From contig JAAILG010001570.1 in the NCBI GenBank assembly GCA_012026655.1, positions 1 through 64,000 of the forward strand: 64,000 bases of DNA, read 5' to 3'. Positions 1 through 46,009 of this stretch are shown here, in pieces. How positions within the stretch are numbered: position 1 is the stretch's first letter; the number at the start of each line of letters is the position of its first letter. A program made the translations under genes and the position numbers. Under the pieces are notes generated by a model that did not search any database, was not told the origin of the DNA, and saw nothing but the letters and a program-made list of their open reading frames with translations. The DNA is from Hydrolagus affinis (Eukaryota).

Positions 1-674
1 AATTAGGTTACTGTATTGGCACATTTCTGCTCCAATAAACTGTTCGTCTAAACGATTTAAATGCAACATTTATTAACAAGCACAAGATATGTTGATGTTA
101 AAGGAAATGCATCTTCAGTGTTCAGTAAACAAACTATATAGGTCCACATTTGCTCAAATGTACACTTAATATAAGATGATTTATTTTTTGCATACTTTAA
201 TGATGGAGGTTTCTACTATGTGTGTGGAAAGGCAGACAATAATTACAGGTAAAATGCCTAATTCGCAAGTTCAGTCTGATCATGACTTGGGAATTGTGGT
301 TATTGCATTCCTGCACTTGCACAGTAAGGTCTATTTATAATAAATCCTTTATACCAAATCCAATAAGCATTGTGTCCAAGTTTCCCAAGGTTGAACTGGA
401 AATATTGAAGCATTTGCTGAGCAATTTTCTAGCTGTCAGGTCTGTTGAGAATGAGAAGACTTGTTTAGTCAATACACAAAACTCTCTCCATCAGCTCTTT
501 GTTCTTCAATCTATTCCCAGTCACTGTACCATGCCCAAACTTCCTCCTTCCTCGATACATATATACAGTGTATAGATAACAATGACTTCGCTTGAAATAA
601 TACATCTTACATTGTGCGTCTTGTATTGTCACCACCTGACATGTCACAGTTGTTAAATAGGTGTAAAATTAAGT

Positions 675-6210: not shown

Positions 6211-7192
6211 TACAATCACATGAAATTACATGCATTTTGTACTTTGCTGCCAGGCTTTGCTACCATGTTAGCTGTTTTATGAGTGGGTGGGAGTTTTCAC
6301 ACCACCCCGCTATGGACATCGCTGGAGGGACCATAGCAGACTTTGCCTCTCCCGCAAATTATTTGTGCAAATGGCTAATTTTGTTTAAGCAGCTGTAAAT
6401 TTCTGATAGATGCAAATTTCCAACGGTTATAAACAGGAGTTAAAAGATTAAAGCCAAACAAATCCCATGTGTTTACCTTTGAAGTTGCATGATTGCGGGA
6501 AAAATAAACATAATTTATTTGACATCCTGCCTCCTCCAATCATAAATAAGATAAGTATCTTGCTATTCTTCCCCACAGGCACATTTGTTGAGAAATGACT
6601 GTTATAATCCACAACACAATATTTTAATATATCTAAACTCTGGATTACCAAGCATTAATAAGTGCGTTGGTGGATTTGTTATGTCTTTTGGTGCTGATCT
6701 TAATTCTTAAACAAGCAAAGTGCACAAGCGAATTCCCCCAAATAGTATGTGTATTGAGTGCTTGACAGGGATGATAGTGTTATTTTAGGGGGAAAAGTGC
6801 CAAAGATAAAGCAAGTGGGAACTGCCATAAGACGCGAGTTTGCATTAATCAATGAGTCAGAGAATCATTTGTTTGTGGAGTTTCAATAACAACTTAGAAC
6901 CAGTTTTCTGAGATAATTTTTTTGCAGATGAGTATAAAGTGCCTTCAGTCAGGTCAGATTGTTAAGGGAGTATAGATCGCACAGTAAAAATATTAAGGCA
7001 GGAAGGGGCACAAAAATATTCTATTGGTTTCCATTTCCAGCAGCTAATTTTGCCTTTGACAAGAATCTTTTCCAAAGCATTCATTTTACATGAACAAAAT
7101 AATAATCATTGCATTTGATATAGCACCTTTCATGTCAGGAGGATATCTGAAAGAGCTTCACCTCCCGATGTGAAAAGTACTCTATAAATGTA

Positions 7193-7360
7193 AAACAAAA
7201 AAACAAAAGTTGCTGGGAAAACTCAGCAGGTCAGGCAGCATCCATGGAGAAAGGAAAAGTGAGTAAACGTTTCGGGTCCATGACCCTTTGTCAGAACTGG
7301 GGCATGTTGGGAGGGAGAGGTTTTTAAGGACAAGTTAGAGAGGGGGTGGGGGGTGGGGGG
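7193..7360 (-). mobile_element. Penelope-like element terminal fragment
   Basis: Minus strand TTCTGACAAAGGGTCATGGACCCGAAACGTTTACTC...GATGCTGCCTGACCTGCTGAGTTTTCCCAGCAACTTTTGTTTT, the recalled typical terminus of chondrichthyan Penelope-type repeats. Confidence 0.75.
7261..7300 (-). ncRNA. Decayed minimal type I hammerhead ribozyme motif
   Basis: CUGACAA (consensus CUGANGA), stem II GGGUC/GACCC, GAAA, palindromic AAACGUUU stem III; one core G is changed to A. Confidence 0.6.
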
Positions 7361-10865: not shown

Positions 10866-11336
10866 AGTAAGGAAATGAAGCTCTTGGCATCACAAAAACT
10901 CCACAGGTCAAATTACACAAAGGCCTGCTTCAGGGGAAATTGGTTGAATTTTCATGCTTGCTGTCCTGCCAAAAAAAAGGGCAATATTTAATGGCAATGT
11001 TTAAACAGCTTGTGGAATAGCAAAGCACCATCGCACATGCAGGCTGCTATTTTTATAATTTATTCCACAATTATTTTTTAATTAAACATACGGCAGACTT
11101 TGAGAAAATTTCTTTTACCCTTGTATATTGGAATCTCAACGATCACATATGGGACAGATTCAAATTGTCAGCACAAAGCAGATGGCCGGTTAATCATGGG
11201 ATAGGTTTAGGTTAGTTATATTAAGCAGCCCTTTAAAAGTAGCAAAACTATTGGTCTCCCATGGATAACAGACCAATACAAAATCATGGAATTAAATAGC
11301 AAAATAAATATTGCTCTTGAACTGTATCATTTTTGT

Positions 11337-11655
11337 GGAGTCCTGTAGCTCAGTGGTTAGAGCACCCGCCTTACAAGCGTGACACCTTTGTTGAAATCCA
11401 AGCAGGTCAGGGCGAAACCTCAGGCAAGTTTTTTTTACTCCACACACACGACTAATAATAATCCCTCCAAAAACACAATGATAAAATTGGTCATTTCAAT
11501 CCACGACTGTTTGTGGGACACCGCTGTGTGCAATTGGCTGCTGCGTTTCGCCCACAAATATATTTCTGGACAATATATTCTGTGAAGCGCTTTGAAATGT
11601 CTAGAAGACGTGAAGAAACACTATGTGAAATGCAAGGATTATTCTTATTATTATT
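11337..11655 (+). mobile_element. tRNA-derived SINE, full length
   Basis: Head, body and tail match the family. Confidence 0.95.
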
Positions 11656-20510: not shown

Positions 20511-20860
20511 ATAATAATTACCAGCCATCACCCCAGAGTGACAGCCAACCTAATAACCACAACAGCAACTTGACAAAGAAGCTGCACTGATGGAGAAAGG
20601 TGAGCACTCATTTATTGATACAACGATGTGGAGGTGGCAGGCAAAGAAACAAAGACATCGAAGGTGTGAGAGGGAGTGTTTATATGCTTCTTTTCCAGCC
20701 TCAGAAGGAAATCAAAGGGAATAATTGCTTACAGCTATAAAAATCACCATCGGAGACAAAAATATCCTAAGAAGAACAACAGTAGCAGCAGTAAGTAAGC
20801 CTATCGGCCAATGCTATTAGAATGATATTTCTCTGATAACAGTATGAACCATGGACTTGT

Positions 20861-20940
20861 GGAGTCCTGTAGCTCAGTGGTGAGAGCACGTCGCCTCACA
20901 AATGAGAAATCTGGGTTCGATTCCCGGCGGGGCCAAATCT
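20861..20940 (+). mobile_element. SINE tRNA-like head only
   Basis: GGAGTCCTGTAGCTCAGTGG...GGGTTCGATTCCCGG; body absent. Confidence 0.85.
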
Positions 20941-33153: not shown

Positions 33154-34507
33154 ATCTATGATGAACAGACAAAGGACACTTTCTAATCTATATTGAAAGA
33201 TAAAAGGCATTTCCGAAGTGTCTTGTGAAATTTAACATTGGCAAATAGTCATTTACTCAGCGACTATGGGAACATTGGTAACATTGGCTTATTATAGCGG
33301 CAGCAATGGGAAAAGGAAAACAACCCATTCTGGTTATTTGCTTAAATGTATAAAAAGACTTTAAGTGTATAAGTGAAGGGACAGATTGCACAAAACCCAG
33401 TAATGTGCTCCATCACAGTTGTGAGTGCTTAACATGGAAACAAAGAAGGCCATTTCAAAGCTATTCTGGATTCCTTCCTTCCCCTTAGAGAAAAACGCTC
33501 AGTCACAAATCTAAACTAAATATTCTGCTATGTATGAAACTATTGTGATTTATAGAAATATAATTTATTAATATGATGTAGTCGCAGTGAAGATTTTAGG
33601 ATTTGTAAGTAGTGTAATTTTTAACAAGCTAACTGCATGTTATATGGTATACTTAAAATCATAGCAACAGGAACACAGAGGGAAACTACAGCTGTCCAAT
33701 TATTCATGATGAATTCCTTTTCACTGGGCAAGCCATCTGACTATATTAATATTGTTTATTGAGCACGTTTGACAGTGAATTGCTGCCGATTTTAGAGGCG
33801 ATTTGCCACTACATATGCGGTAATATAATGAAAATCACGCATGTCGCCCACATATATACAATCAATTCACTTTACAGTATATTCTGTGATGCGCTTTGAA
33901 ACATTTTGTCAAATGTTATGTTTTGTCAAGGATTATTATTATATTTATATTATATTATATTTCAGTGACAACGCCAGGCACCCATGGAAATCAATGGGGA
34001 TGTAATGCATTATGAAGTACTGTACTTGGTTGCTGTACTGAGTTAGCCTCTTTTGCAATGCTTCAGCAACATTCCATATACAATCCCACAGTTATATATT
34101 GTGACCCTGCATAATTGTTCTCCAGAGCCTAATTGTTCTTTAGGAAGGAGCTAATACGAAGTTCACAGCAGTAGTGACTACAGCTACAAGTATGATTTCA
34201 ATTGCAGGGAGGAATTTGCAATTTGTCTTGAATTGGTGACTCACACCACCGAGAACATTGCGACTTAATTAAAGAACTTCATCTCATAAAGACAGATTAA
34301 TTTATTTGTAGCTGAACTCCTTTGCAGTGGGTAAAATGAGTAAAGCCACATTCTCTTCCTCAATTTCCCTATCTGGAATTCCTCAGACATTACAAGCTAC
34401 TGGCAAAGCAATGGAAATGCCAAAGGCCCTGCTTGATAAGCAACAATATTACTGTCTCTCGTCATGGTTTGGAGTTCTGCCCTTGGTGGTTTTAAACTTG
34501 GGTGTTG

Positions 34508-34850
34508 ATAATAATAATAATCCTCGCATTTGATATAGCGTCTTCTCGATGTCTGAAAGTGCTTGGGACATCCTCCCGACGTAAAAGGCACATGTAAATG
34601 TAATTTTTTTTATGTTGTTGTTGCTTCACAGAATATACTGTAAAGTGAATTAACTAGATTTTGTGGGCGAAATGCAGCAGCCAGTTGCGCACAGCAGTCG
34701 TGGATTGAGTGACAAAATTATTATTTTTATTTTTTATTTTTCTTGAAGTGTGTAGAATAAGCAAACTTGCCCAAGGTTTCACCCTGCCTGGATGGAACCC
34801 AGGTCTCTCGCTTGTGAGGTGCGTGCTCTAACCACTGAGCTACAGGACTC
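34508..34850 (-). mobile_element. SINE with an opposite-strand L2 tail inserted at 34565-34621
   Basis: Family match interrupted by GGGACATCCTCCCGACGTAAAAGGCAC...(GTT)n, flanked by TGCTT repeats. Confidence 0.9.
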
Positions 34851-41332: not shown

Positions 41333-43449
41333 ATGCCTCATCACAAACTGTGTTAAAGCGATTCTCAGTATTTACTTTAGACCGTATCTTGTAGATCGAT
41401 CCAGTGAGGGAGTAGGCACTTAAACATAATGGGTCAAATGGCTCTTTCTTGTGCTCAAAATATGATCTGATTACTTTTATCTTCACCAAAGACAGCAACT
41501 ATAACTTTGATAAATATAATGATTGAAAAATAAAATCACAAGTTGAAACGTTAGAATTGTGAATAAGCATTTGAGGCTTTGTGGTTAAGGCAAACTTTCA
41601 CAATTCGTGCAAAATAGGATATAAAATTACAAGGCAATTCAACAGCTGATATTCTTACATTTTAGCCATCTTTACAAATAAAGCTCGTCCCACTTAAGAG
41701 AAACCATGAGGTCCATATTGATTTAGTCTTCTGGTATATTTTGTTCAAGGTTCCATTCTTTTACAAACCTGAGCTGGGAACTATTTGTACTTATCCACTC
41801 AGTCGGGAGCTCACATAATAAAAAACAGCACTGTCCGTGCTTCACACAAGTGCGAAAAAAGTGAAGAGAATAAAATGTATGTGGTTTCCAGGCAACACCG
41901 CAACTGGTTGGATAGTTAGTTATTCCTGTCATGCAGAGGAAAATGGTTTGAGGACGGCATTTATTTCTCTCTAATTCCTATAACTCCCGCGGTGATTTTT
42001 TCCCCCTTGTCCTGGACTGACAGCAGAATTACAAGCCTCGTCAGGATTATTCTGATGATTTGAAGTCATTTCAGTTATGCCCCGGAAAAAGAATAAAGTC
42101 ATAGTAATCCTTGCATTTGATATAGGAGCTCATCGTTGAGATGTCTCAAAGCGCTTCGCAGAAAGTGAATTGACTGTATATTTTGTGGGCGAAATCTCAT
42201 TGAAATAGGTCTGTGATAACATTCGAAAACATGACTGGGGGATGAATTAATTAAGCGAAATATGGTCTACTGCAAAAATACTGACATTTTAATTTTATAT
42301 AGTTCCTGGTGCATAGAGATGGGTTCGAGGAAAATGCGTCTAAAAAGGTGTTTATTTCAGGAACAAATCTGACTCGTTTCATCCGTTAAAATATCTATCT
42401 TGCAGGCATTTGAACAGTTCTGCAGCCACATTGAGATGTGCAGCTGTGGTTTAGTAATGCAGATATCATATTATAAGCAGCTGGAATCAAATAAACAGTT
42501 TGGGAATTTACAGAGCATTAGCATATTTCATGCGCTCACGTGCAATTTGTAATACTCTTGTCTGAATGGATTTTAAATGCAACGCGATCATACTTGGGTA
42601 GCCTACAATTTTCCCAGTAAGGTTTCAATCTGGGAGCTGTTGAAATGGTTATTAAAAATTAGGGTGAATGTAAACCGATATCATTGTGCATCAACGTGAT
42701 AAGAGACGCGTAATATGGGATTGGAAACAAAATAAGTGAGAAGTGAGAAGGCCATTTCAAATCGAAACGACTCGAAACGCTTCACTGGATGTATTGTAAC
42801 GTGTGGTGACTGTTAACCAGGATATCTGGAGAAAGTCCCTTGTCAGACAAGTGCATGGGAGTTGCTAAGTTACTCTCAACAATCCACTTACTTTTCCTAC
42901 ACTCTAGTTTAGGATGAGGGAAGAGGGAAGTTGCTTCAATCTATTACAGTGCAGTATTTTGTTTAATAATTTTCGCATTAAGTGTTGAACATCATCATAA
43001 GGATATCAGTCATGGCTACAATTTTAATAACGTCCATCTGAGCTTGTGATAATTCTACCTTGTGTTGAAATAAAATCTCGGCTTTAATGATTTAACTTTA
43101 GCTGCAGGATTTCAGGATCATTAGTCCTTTGTATCAATGTATTGTTGGAAATGTTAGAATGTTCAGCATTGTTACACATAGCAGCTAATTAATGGTAATA
43201 GATTTGCATCCCAAAGAAAATCAGTGACATTAAAACCTAGATCATTATCACAAACCATTACAATAATCAAACATGCCACTGCCTGAAATCGTTCCACAAA
43301 AGATTCCAGTTAAAAAAAAAACAATGAATGTCAACTGAGTAGGTTAGCAGTAAAGTGAACAATGGAAGCTGGGTTCACCTTCCGTGGTGAAATGTGTGAT
43401 ATTTCATAAAGCATTTCATGACCCCTATATATGTAACAGACCTTTGAGT

Positions 43450-43560
43450 CATTCTCTCTGCAACTCCCATCTTGGTCTCTCTCCACCTCACCCCTTCCCT
43501 CCCATCTTTAAAGCTTGCCTTGAAAGACCTATCCTTTCAACCTTCATCATGCTTTCAGGC
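43450..43560 (+). mobile_element. Decayed L2 3' fragment
   Basis: CTCTGCAACTCC...TTTAAAGCTTGCCTTGAAAGACCTATCCTTTC resembles LWNS...FKA.LKTYLF. Confidence 0.55.
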
Positions 43561-43659
43561 ATCTCTCTCCCGCCCACCCTCGTAGCTCTTCCCCTTGTTT
43601 GGGCACCCATCCAATTCAATCCTGAGGTCGATAGATTTTTGTTAAGGTCAGGGTATCAA

Positions 43660-43786
43660 CAACAACTAAATTACATTTTTATAGCACTTTTCACGTCGAG
43701 AGGACATCTCAAGGCGCTGAAAGGGTGACATCCTTCGATCCGGAATCGAACCAGCGACCTAAGGATACCTAAGGATGCAGCGACCC
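43660..43786 (-). mobile_element. Chimeric retrocopy: tRNA-Tyr 3' exon plus L2 tail, TSD ATCAA
   Basis: ATCAA at 43655-43659 and 43787-43791; removing the insert restores contiguous CR1 sequence. Confidence 0.85.
43731..43766 (-). pseudogene. tRNA-Tyr(GTA) 3' exon fragment (positions 38-73)
   Basis: ATCCTTAGGTCGCTGGTTCGATTCCGGATCGAAGGA differs by one base from the recalled vertebrate tRNA-Tyr 3' exon (..CCGGCTCGAAGGA); 5' half absent, no CCA. Confidence 0.9.
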
Positions 43787-44588
43787 ATCAAGAGATAAGG
43801 CAGGTAAATGGAGTTGAGGTGCAGATCGGACATGGTCTAAAGGAATAGACCATGTCAAGGGGCTATATGGCATATTCATGTTATTATGTTTCATCCAGCA
43901 CTGCGCAGTGCTTTAAAGCAATGTGAAACACTCTGCATGATGTAAATTGTTGTCGTATATCATCAGGTGATCATGATCACATAAAACTCTGCAAATTTCA
44001 CCCTTACATCTGATGTATCACCTCCTCTCTAAGCGACGTTCAATAAAGTCAGATTGTGAAGCTGTCAGTAGTAAAATGAAATAAATGTCCCTGTAGGAAG
44101 CAAATCATGATTACCAGCTCAAAGTGTCATAAAGAATTTGTCTTCCTGTGTTTGTGAAGCTAATCGGAATTGAAGCAGCGCATCCAGTGAGAGTACAATT
44201 GATTTAGGGAAAAATATTGGAGAAACGATTTCAAGACTGGGACAACCACACAAAAAAATAAACCGGTAGTACAATACAACACAATCAAATTTACATTTAT
44301 ATAGTGCCTTAACATTAGTAGGCCATCCCTTGGCATTTAGTAGGAGTGCGACATGATTCAAAATCAATACTATATGGTTGAGGGGCAGGAATTGTCTGAT
44401 CACCACTAAATAGACAGAATTCTGAACTCACGCTCAGAAAAGTTAACAATCCAATACAGTGCTGGAGGATAGTGACATGAGACATGTGATGAGATAATAA
44501 ACCTCAGTCCTATCTGGCTGTTTAGGTGGACATTAAACATCTTGGCACCCAGAGATTTGTCTGCCCCATTTACAGGTTCTACTTCTTG

Positions 44589-44657
44589 TTTCAGCGCCTT
44601 GGGACTTCCTCCCGATGTGAAAGGCATTATACAAATGTAATTTTGTCGTTCTTGTTA
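44589..44657 (+). mobile_element. L2 tail-only insertion
   Basis: TTTCAGCGCCTTGGGACTTCCTCCCGATGTGAAAGGCATTATACAAATGTAATTTTGTCGTT. Confidence 0.85.
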
Positions 44658-46009
44658 TCCCCTCCAAAAATCAGCTTCTCGGAAGATCTACAAATGTTTT
44701 ACATCTGTGCTTAGAGTCCCTCAAAATACCTCAAACGTTCCTCAAAATACAAGCTGTGTTTTATATGGAGTGCATTCGGTAATGACCGGGGTTAGTTGCT
44801 GGCCTGTTGGAGGTGAAAGCCCTGTATGGAATCACCCGCCGTTGAGTTGTTGTCTGAGCAATGACATGCTATTTTGAGATATTCAGCGGCGTAACGCAAG
44901 GCAGTTCATCTTTTTTGTTAAAGAAGATCTTAAACGAAAGTTAATCTCCGAATAGCTGTCTATTTTAAATCACTGATATACATGATTGTGATTGCTGCGC
45001 AGGTGATTTCACTTCAAGAATTGTAAACTGAATTAATCCTGAATGTACGTTCGACAAGATGATAAAATTCTTTACACACACCCAACCCCCCCTCACCCCC
45101 TTTCCCACCCCACACCGCCACTTAAAGAGAACCTTTCTCCACACTACAGTATCGCTAGGCTAAGCACAATACACTCAACAACACTGCAAATGTCACTTTT
45201 TGATGGATCCTCTCTCAAATGTGTACTTAGGAGCTGCAGTATATGGTAATGTGTTTCATTTTCACCAAAGAATCATCTGGGTGCAATTTACGCCTCAAAA
45301 TTGCTTGATTCACCAAAGTTTATTTAAACTTTGTGGAAATAAAAACAAAACACCTGCATTTCTGGGATAAGAGTCCGAGGATGTGACACCTGGGGTATGG
45401 CTTTCTCTCTGAACAGGTTTGTTTGTGAGACTATTGCTCCAGAGTTCCACACAGCATGAGCACCACCAAACATTAAATAATTGAAAGCAAAAAAGGCAAA
45501 GGCCTTCGGTAACCTCAGACATTATTTATAACAGAAGCCACCTGACAATAACCAACTACACGTGGGTCTGCCTCAGCTCCTATTTTGATGCATTGATTAT
45601 TATTGTTAAGGATTAGTTATTTATAATAATAATAATAATCCTTGCATTTGATATAAGGCCTCATCAAGATCTCTGAGACATTTTAAAGCGCTTCCCGGAA
45701 TATACTGTAAAGTAAATTGATGGTATTTTTTCTTCTTTGTTTTGCTTGTAAATAATCAAACTCATCCAGCAGCACATCTGCTCAGATATTCCTTTTTGAA
45801 ACAGGGGATTATGTTGTTGGGAGTTGGTGTAATCTCTTTTGAAGTTTTTGTAGCCATATAGTTAATGAGGTCTCATCTGAATACTAAAGAAAATACATTG
45901 TACATCTTGAAAAAGGGAATGTGATACAACAATTTCTGTCTGAAATATTACACAAACTCCCTTTTTTTCCTCTGCTATGCAAGAGACCGACAAGCAGACT
46001 TTGTAAAGG

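Follow-up and report, generated by a model that had tools for sequence, protein, structure and literature searches.

A tRNA-Tyr 3' exon joined to an L2 tail in Hydrolagus affinis: the probable DNA record of a cut pre-tRNA

In a 64,000-nucleotide stretch of Hydrolagus affinis DNA (contig JAAILG010001570.1, positions 1 to 64,000; hereafter the window), we found an insertion of 132 bases that is a dead retrocopy, in which the 3' exon and trailer of a pre-tRNA-Tyr are followed by the tail of an L2 element within a 5-bp target duplication. Both parts of the insert are in sense orientation within this one duplication. We think it probable that a TSEN-cut, trailer-bearing 3' half of pre-tRNA-Tyr was captured when the L2 reverse transcriptase (RT) jumped onto its U-run end. 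For the wider claim, that L2 RT takes nuclear pre-tRNAs of the germ line through their U-run ends and has left a fossil series of one gene in unspliced, TSEN-cut and m1A58-stopped forms, we see somewhat better than an even chance.

Between two 5-bp repeats, the insert (43655-43791, minus strand) has 20 extra bases, then a tRNA piece of 36 nt, a trailer of 8 nt, TTT and the L2 tail. This layout, with ATCAA on both sides, no CCA and a trailer ending in TTT, is as an earlier sequence-only reading had described it. The ATCAA at the insert's 5' end is found at 43787..43791, and the copy at its 3' end (43655..43659) overlaps the GTT repeats of the tail. The insert interrupts the 3' region of an element that we take to be CR1 or CR1-like, on the plus strand; the left part (43605..43654) differs from the majority of its paralogues at 7/56 bases, and the right part (43792..43860), which has a short deletion near the insert, at 17/78 bases. 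When we looked at the corresponding site in 29 paralogous CR1 copies, we found ATCAA in 25/29 and a second ATCAA within the next 12 nt in 0/29. Because the paralogues have a single ATCAA that is never repeated, the flanking ATCAA is a true 5-bp target duplication. The same CR1 position (43655-43659 in the window) holds other L2 or SINE inserts in L025, L112, L265/L266, L272, L276 and L280, which suggests that it is a preferred target.

At the 3' junction, a contig from run X4 (organism A) spans 43330-43698 with 5 letters different and a contig from run X7 (organism B, another study) spans 43330-43697 with 2 letters different, so that each covers the left flank and 38-39 bases of the L2 tail; no contig bridging this junction was found in runs X2 and X3. 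Since bridging contigs come from two other organisms, the 3' junction is real and shared and is no assembly artefact. For the tRNA part and the 5' junction, the evidence is the assembly together with a word share of 0.98 in run X1, which may be the source. An Rfam scan of 42500-45000 returned zero matches. The copy retains only positions 38-73 of the tRNA, with a B box and no A box; it would be silent for want of the A box and is almost certainly without function.

The tRNA piece (43731..43766, minus strand) corresponds to positions 38-73 of tRNA-Tyr(GTA). Read from 43766 to 43731, it is identical at 35/36 bases to the tRNA-Tyr(GTA) genes of this genome that contain an intron, with the sole mismatch at position 65. 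The exact 3'-exon pattern has 28 matches in the genome, and the pattern with 3 mismatches allowed has 44 (control 0), which, aside from the copies treated further on, are tRNA-Tyr(GTA) genes. In 38/38 distinct gene contexts, an intron of 17-21 nt with G at –3 precedes the exon start, confirming the earlier statement that both exon pieces begin at A38 of an intron-containing tRNA-Tyr(GTA). This G corresponds to a described anticodon-intron pair (PMC10275265). The window exon carries the G57 allele of the dispersed genes, which is present in only 3/38 gene contexts.

The 20 extra bases comprise a repeat of tRNA positions 38-47 (43767..43776, minus strand, 10 nt, assigned by sequence) and a further 10 nt (43777..43786, minus strand); the exon restarts twice at exactly position 38. 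We considered whether the outermost 10 nt are the end of an intron and rejected this: they have T at –3 where 38/38 gene contexts have G, and their identity to the two closest introns is 4/10 and 2/10. They contain (43786-43777) an exact 8-mer from the exon middle, for which the chance expectation is about 1.3e-3, and are copied from the exon rather than an intron. In zebrafish, about half of L2 inserts have extra bases at the 5' end, often templated from the insert or its flank (PMC4245944, PMC4760211). Because templated 5' extras are common in L2 inserts, the 20 bases are accounted for without RT re-priming; the repetition that had been noted earlier is present, but the re-priming proposed for it is not needed, as templated L2 extras suffice (PMC4760211). 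Long 5' repeats are uncommon in this genome, and 5' repetition of at least 8 nt occurs in 0/77 SINE heads. Whichever mechanism made them, the 5' repeats show that the strand being copied ended at A38.

Downstream of the exon are the 8-nt trailer (43723..43730, minus strand) and the TTT at the joint (43720..43722, minus strand), which has the form of a Pol III U-run end and of which TT is shared with the L2 sequence that precedes the stem. We found no source gene with the window's exact trailer, TGTCACCCTTT, in the assembly, which is fragmented (245,464 contigs). The expectation that a tRNA-Tyr gene with this trailer would be found thus failed in this assembly, and it is rescued only by the sister copies described below, whose trailer, CGCCACACTTTT, is identical to the window's trailer and T-run at 8/11 positions; the trailer of one gene (L033) is a close relative of CGCCACACTTTT. 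We also considered that the trailer is a piece of an L2 variant and rejected this, as six other near matches have unrelated DNA upstream. The unit as a whole is single-copy, with one full match in the genome, and the six other junction matches differ wholly upstream; it is no piece of a tRNA-Tyr SINE.

The last ~60 nt of the insert (43660..43719, minus strand) are an L2 3' end alone, which runs from the first paired base of a stem-loop to TGTAA and (GTT)n. The LINE to which this 3' end belongs is very abundant (3212 candidates, of which 40 were scored). Longer copies of the tail extend into an ORF whose homologues carry RT and endonuclease domains (PF00078, and in several also PF14529/PF03372) and whose best matches are Callorhinchus milii proteins. 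We provisionally assign the LINE to L2 from the form of the tail and from a C-terminal motif of ORF2 that is presumably an L2 mark. In a young tail, a stem-loop with an internal loop starts exactly at the joint (z = –3.99), and the aged window tail takes the same fold but does not outdo its shuffles (z = –0.65). L2 proteins bind a stem-loop of this form, with an internal loop and then a short repeat (PMC4176376, PMC1636434), and a short target duplication (3-5 bp) with templated 5' extras is an L2 trait (PMC4245944, PMC4760211); the window's duplication of 5 bp falls within this range.

In 377 kb not selected for tails, automatic calling gave tail-only copies that start at the stem base in 23/70 tails, and TTT precedes 6/23 of these calls as compared to a background of 3%, although several automatic calls were wrong by eye. 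The window tail differs from young tails or the local majority at 7-8/57 positions, as compared to 1/36 for the tRNA part (Fisher p 0.11, or 0.02-0.04 when the repeated pieces are counted). Within 3 mismatches of the window tail there are 0 other genome copies, as compared to 2053 for a young control tail. An aged L2 tail is permissible, since the host CR1 is itself old (12-22% off its majority).

To identify further copies of the tRNA-tail union, which the sequence-only reading had proposed to look for, we searched with the 22 nt at the 3' end of the tRNA (55 matches, control 5) and twice with the exon end plus trailer (11 matches, control 3; 14 matches, control 7). As these patterns permitted up to 3 mismatches but no indels, the tally of chimeras is a lower bound, and the other matches of the exon-end and trailer searches are at the chance level given by the controls (3 and 7). 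We found six sisters of a related trailer lineage, which with the window make seven chimeras. L282/L455 starts at 39-42 and joins an L2 tail at the same stem base as in the window, with A58 read as T and a target duplication of 5-6 bp. L456 starts at 38-41 and also joins an L2 tail at that stem base; its T-arm is skipped between short repeats and its 4-bp duplication is weak. L074/L084 starts at 37-42 inside a 5-bp duplication and continues into a whole SINE from its first base; L074 was first detected by the whole-exon pattern, and the 3' 22-nt search also recovers it. Whole SINEs from the first base, with no target duplication found, likewise follow the tRNA part in L460, which starts at about 62-63, in L474, which starts at 59, and in L466, which starts at position 3 and keeps the intron. 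A copy of a second tRNA-Tyr gene, L452, is unspliced, begins with ~24 nt of 5' flank and is joined to an L2 tail; its outer flanks are unrelated and no target duplication was found.

None of the seven chimeras is spliced. Four begin within 38-42, where the 3' splice site is, two begin near 59-63, and the remaining one is unspliced. No start falls within 43-58, within the intron or within the 5' exon. For the three exon-start sisters, which are found through their 3' parts, this clustering has p = 3e-4 if starts are uniform upstream of 59 and p = 0.013 within 38-58. An exact start at 38 is seen only in the window; in the other three exon-start copies it is blurred by overlap with the target or by extra bases. 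The joints vary among sisters, with two partner types and at least 4 different joints, of which four keep T4 or more and three carry 2-4 extra bases. No spliced tRNA-Tyr copy is present among the 44 matches of the whole-exon pattern or the 55 matches of the 3' 22-nt pattern. L466 and L452 are unspliced, and the existence of such copies means that RT is able to pass the anticodon region when the precursor is uncut.

Several other matches were left out of this count. In L286, a degenerate copy of the intron is followed ~54 nt later by a tail; L283, L287, L288 and a broken copy in L048 are array remnants; and L285, L289 and L458 are ambiguous or SINE-derived. L284 (G000:C5334 near 118-153, minus strand), with L290 and L291, has an aged Tyr 3' exon without a LINE partner that abuts an old L2 ORF end. 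We rejected it as a partner-less exon-start copy, as the upstream bases are 8/10 like the array intron end and the 3' flank is array-like by eye; it is probably a DNA-level join through ~10 nt like the array intron end.

Other tRNA types were sampled one by one. For tRNA-Arg(TCT), no exon-start copy was found: 11/11 matches are genes, and the 30/60 matches fetched in a looser search are genes or SINE heads. For tRNA-Leu(CAA), the pattern gave 5/5 whole copies and no exon-start copy, and for tRNA-Ile(TAT) there was none among the 33/130 matches looked at, all of which are genes. For intron-less tRNAs, no 3' half fused to L2 or SINE was found in 45 contexts from 57 matches for Phe, 48/213 for Lys-CTT and 34/163 for Leu. 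As a cross-check of a TSEN cut versus an m1G37 stop, which covered part of the Ile, Leu and Lys matches, these samples gave no fragments either way.

Based on these observations, we propose the following path. At a nick in CR1, L2 ORF2 would prime copying of an L2 RNA from its (GTT)n end, in keeping with the structure observed; target-primed copying is established L2 biology. RT would then stall at the base of the 3' stem-loop, the observed position and a common start of tail-only copies, and may jump from there onto a nuclear pre-tRNA-Tyr at its U-run 3' end, with TT microhomology aiding. Trailer and 3' exon would be copied until run-off at A38, where the RNA backbone was cut, as four copies suggest, and 20 extra bases, for which the end of the cDNA served as template, would be added as the 5' end was joined, giving the two restarts at A38. 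The differing joints, T4+ runs and extra bases are what independent jumps onto terminated transcripts would be expected to leave, and a jump of RT onto U-run 3' ends is favoured by the varied joints, the extra bases, the SINE partners that begin at their first base and the lack of 5'-exon fusions. A TSEN cut would explain both the window's two exact restarts and the cluster of four copies. In mouse cells, 3'-exon fragments of pre-tRNA-Tyr that reach into the trailer have been seen (PMC12239594).

Four other explanations have to be weighed. In one, which the sequence-only reading had not taken up and which we consider unlikely, the template jump is onto a spliced, trailer-retaining precursor that is uncut, and RT is halted at A38 by m1G37. 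Position 37 is G in these tRNA-Tyr genes and we assume that cytosolic tRNA-Tyr carries m1G37. Such a stop would explain why starts at 38 are found in Tyr only and none in Arg-TCT, which has A37, and there are modification marks in the chimera family, with A58 read as T in L282 and a start at 59 in L474. In many zebrafish tRNAs, m1G37 disturbs reverse transcription (PMC11417395). However, yeast Trm5 modifies only spliced tRNA (PMC10275265), and because Trm5 acts after splicing, this explanation needs an RNA that was spliced and methylated with its terminator end still on. No spliced copy that reads past 37 was found, whereas unspliced ones were; the sampled matches hold no 3' half with L2 or SINE from intron-less Phe, Lys-CTT or Leu, and a whole Leu-CAG copy with G37 precedes a SINE in L319. 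A little less likely still is a history with no joining of RNAs. Here an L2 tail would first have inserted into a tRNA-Tyr gene at its terminator; the read-through transcript made by Pol III would have been cut by TSEN, and its 3' half copied by L2 by way of the built-in tail. Genes of this form exist for tRNA-Glu(TTC), where 77/78 readable array copies (79 fetched) have an L2 tail after a 6-nt trailer and TTT; both T-runs in the window are three long, which permits Pol III read-through, and the window tail, for which there is no close sibling, has diverged further than the tRNA part. In contrast, no tRNA-Tyr gene with the window's trailer and a fused tail was found in the assembly, from which the source gene itself is absent, and no dispersed copy of the tRNA-Glu tail genes was seen among the 78 read. 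The seven chimeras have two partner types, which one gene cannot yield, and at least 4 joints, and four of them have T4+ that would stop Pol III. About 18/53 unselected tails are also without T4, and in L282 the tail and the exon are about equally diverged.

Ligation of the tRNA piece to L2 or SINE RNA by RTCB before retrotransposition, which the sequence-only reading had offered as one way of joining the two RNAs, is in our view very improbable. RTCB is present at tRNA splicing, and the chimeras end in U-runs like those of U6-L1 chimeras. A Pol III trailer, however, ends in 3'-OH, and a whole SINE RNA begins with a triphosphate. For U6/L1 such ligation is established, but the upstream partner must carry a cyclic phosphate and the downstream one a 5'-OH (PMC6789731). 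TSEN leaves the cyclic phosphate on the 5' exon, and among 44 matches to this exon, one of them unreadable because it lies where a contig ends, none is joined to L2 or SINE; extra bases are also present at several joints. Of the earlier proposal that a TSEN-cut 3' exon was joined to L2, a trailer-bearing 3' half copied with an L2 tail is supported and its start recurs in three sisters; RTCB-type ligation is not supported. The least probable of the four is an ordinary 5' truncation of an uncut, unspliced precursor that matches the splice site by chance or through pausing at the bulge between intron and exon. In its favour, L466 and L452 come from unspliced templates, L460 and L474 are short truncations and annealing-type joining can trim a cDNA end (PMC4760211). 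Against this, four starts are in 38-42 with none in 43-58, the intron or the 5' exon (p 3e-4 to 0.013 for the three independent ones), exact restarts at 38 occur twice in the window insert and its upstream bases violate the 38/38 rule of G at –3.

The capture of a cut 3' half by template jumping, which we prefer, has counterparts among U6 sequences in the same genome. Among 15 matches to the U6 3' end, 9 (8 of them distinct) are 5'-truncated U6 fused to an L2 tail, a SINE or CR1. The partner is an L2 tail at the same stem base in L115, the first base of a SINE in L106, L108 and L112, the middle of a SINE in L104 and L107 and CR1 in L103 and L109/L110. The U6 part starts at position 73 in L103, L106 and L108, at 68-69 in L109 and L112 and at 89 in L115. 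In L100 and L101, U6 fragments are followed by GGGTTA-like repeats.

By its structure, the window insert belongs to the small-RNA/LINE chimeric pseudogenes and is no SINE. U6-L2, U6-Mon-1 and U6-AnolisSINE2 in platypus and Anolis likewise join a 5'-truncated Pol III RNA in sense orientation to a short L2 or SINE 3' partner, with duplications of 1-9 bp and template switching proposed, and the same U6 class is present here; in contrast to these, the passenger in the window is a trailer-bearing pre-tRNA whose 5' end is at the 3' splice site rather than scattered (PMC4476161). The 21 human loci of tRNA-half/LINE-1 chimeras also unite half a tRNA with a LINE in one event, and their authors infer that the RNA was cut before copying (bioRxiv 10.1101/2025.02.02.635956). 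Those are mostly 5' halves (1-37) in antisense orientation, with duplications of 9-19 bp and twin priming and with RNase T2, angiogenin or RNase L named as the source of the cut, whereas here we see 3' halves in sense orientation, with a trailer and with L2 or SINE as partner. The main text of that report makes no mention of pre-tRNA, trailer or Tyr, and its locus table may hold a Tyr case. The U6/L1 chimeras made through RTCB resemble ours in that a Pol III U-run abuts a 5'-truncated LINE; they need a donor with a cyclic phosphate, however, and the tRNA half that would be this donor was not found fused here (PMC6789731). Tailless tRNA retropseudogenes, processed or unprocessed, are also nuclear tRNA precursors copied by a LINE, but they are L1-made, 3'-truncated, primed inside the tRNA and have no LINE partner (PMC5322556). 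In tRNA SINEs with a LINE tail (SINE2-1_CM/CR1-2_CM, SacSINE1, HE1), a tRNA part is likewise followed by a LINE 3' stem-loop, but the window copy is without the 5' half, A box, body and daughters of such elements (PMC3747384). The architecture of a nascent SINE, which had been suggested for the insert, does not hold for a single copy without an A box, and the head of the resident SINE differs from the insert. We found no report in the open-access literature of sense, trailer-bearing 3' exons that start at the splice site, or of such exons with L2. Small-RNA/L2 chimeras as such are known.

Other unions of tRNA genes with LINE or SINE tails were seen in passing. L466 (G000:C13430 near 3890, plus strand) and L452 (G000:C4868 near 18050, minus strand) have an intron, a trailer and both promoter boxes and are better candidates for proto-SINEs than the window copy, though degenerate. 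In L319 (G000:C1487 near 50700, minus strand), an intact-looking tRNA-Leu(CAG), and in L446 (G000:C4866 near 2490, plus strand), a degenerate intron-containing tRNA-Leu(CAA), has a whole SINE directly after the T-run; these are either SINEs inserted at terminators or whole pre-tRNA chimeras. Beside Ile-TAT genes there is a tandem array of tRNA-Glu(TTC) (L137:1934-2075, in G000:C24968, and L170-L248), in which an L2 tail replaces the terminator in 77/78 copies. The first T4 is within the tail, so precursors would carry the L2 stem-loop, and in L225 a different, longer L2 piece is at the same spot. An apparent target duplication at the L137 gene was dropped, as other array copies are without it. 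In the window, seven ARAGORN tRNA calls (672-982, 11335-11655, 20859-20935 and others) fall on the heads of a tRNA SINE that is abundant, ~320 nt long and ends in a LINE-like tail; a tRNA gene count in this genome would be inflated by them. Back-to-back inverted pairs of LINE/SINE tails are found at 7090-7200 and 34505-34620 in the window, at L075:2690-2790 and in L077 near 3747.

The window insert is the probable DNA record of a short-lived RNA intermediate. If our reading is true, splicing can precede 3'-end trimming in a vertebrate germ line, and retrocopies would record the order of tRNA processing, and modification, in the germ line of a species where no biochemistry exists. Template jumping by L2 would be widened from U6 to intermediates of pre-tRNA splicing. 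The chimeras offer a natural contrast, in that RTCB ligation predicts 5' halves while RT jumping predicts 3' halves with U-run ends, and the data favour jumping. The long-proposed first step of SINE birth, in which a tRNA gains a LINE tail, would be countable in one genome and by two routes, and the whole pre-tRNA-SINE fusions, together with an array of 77 or more tRNA-Glu/L2 genes, would be a snapshot of the raw material of tRNA SINEs.
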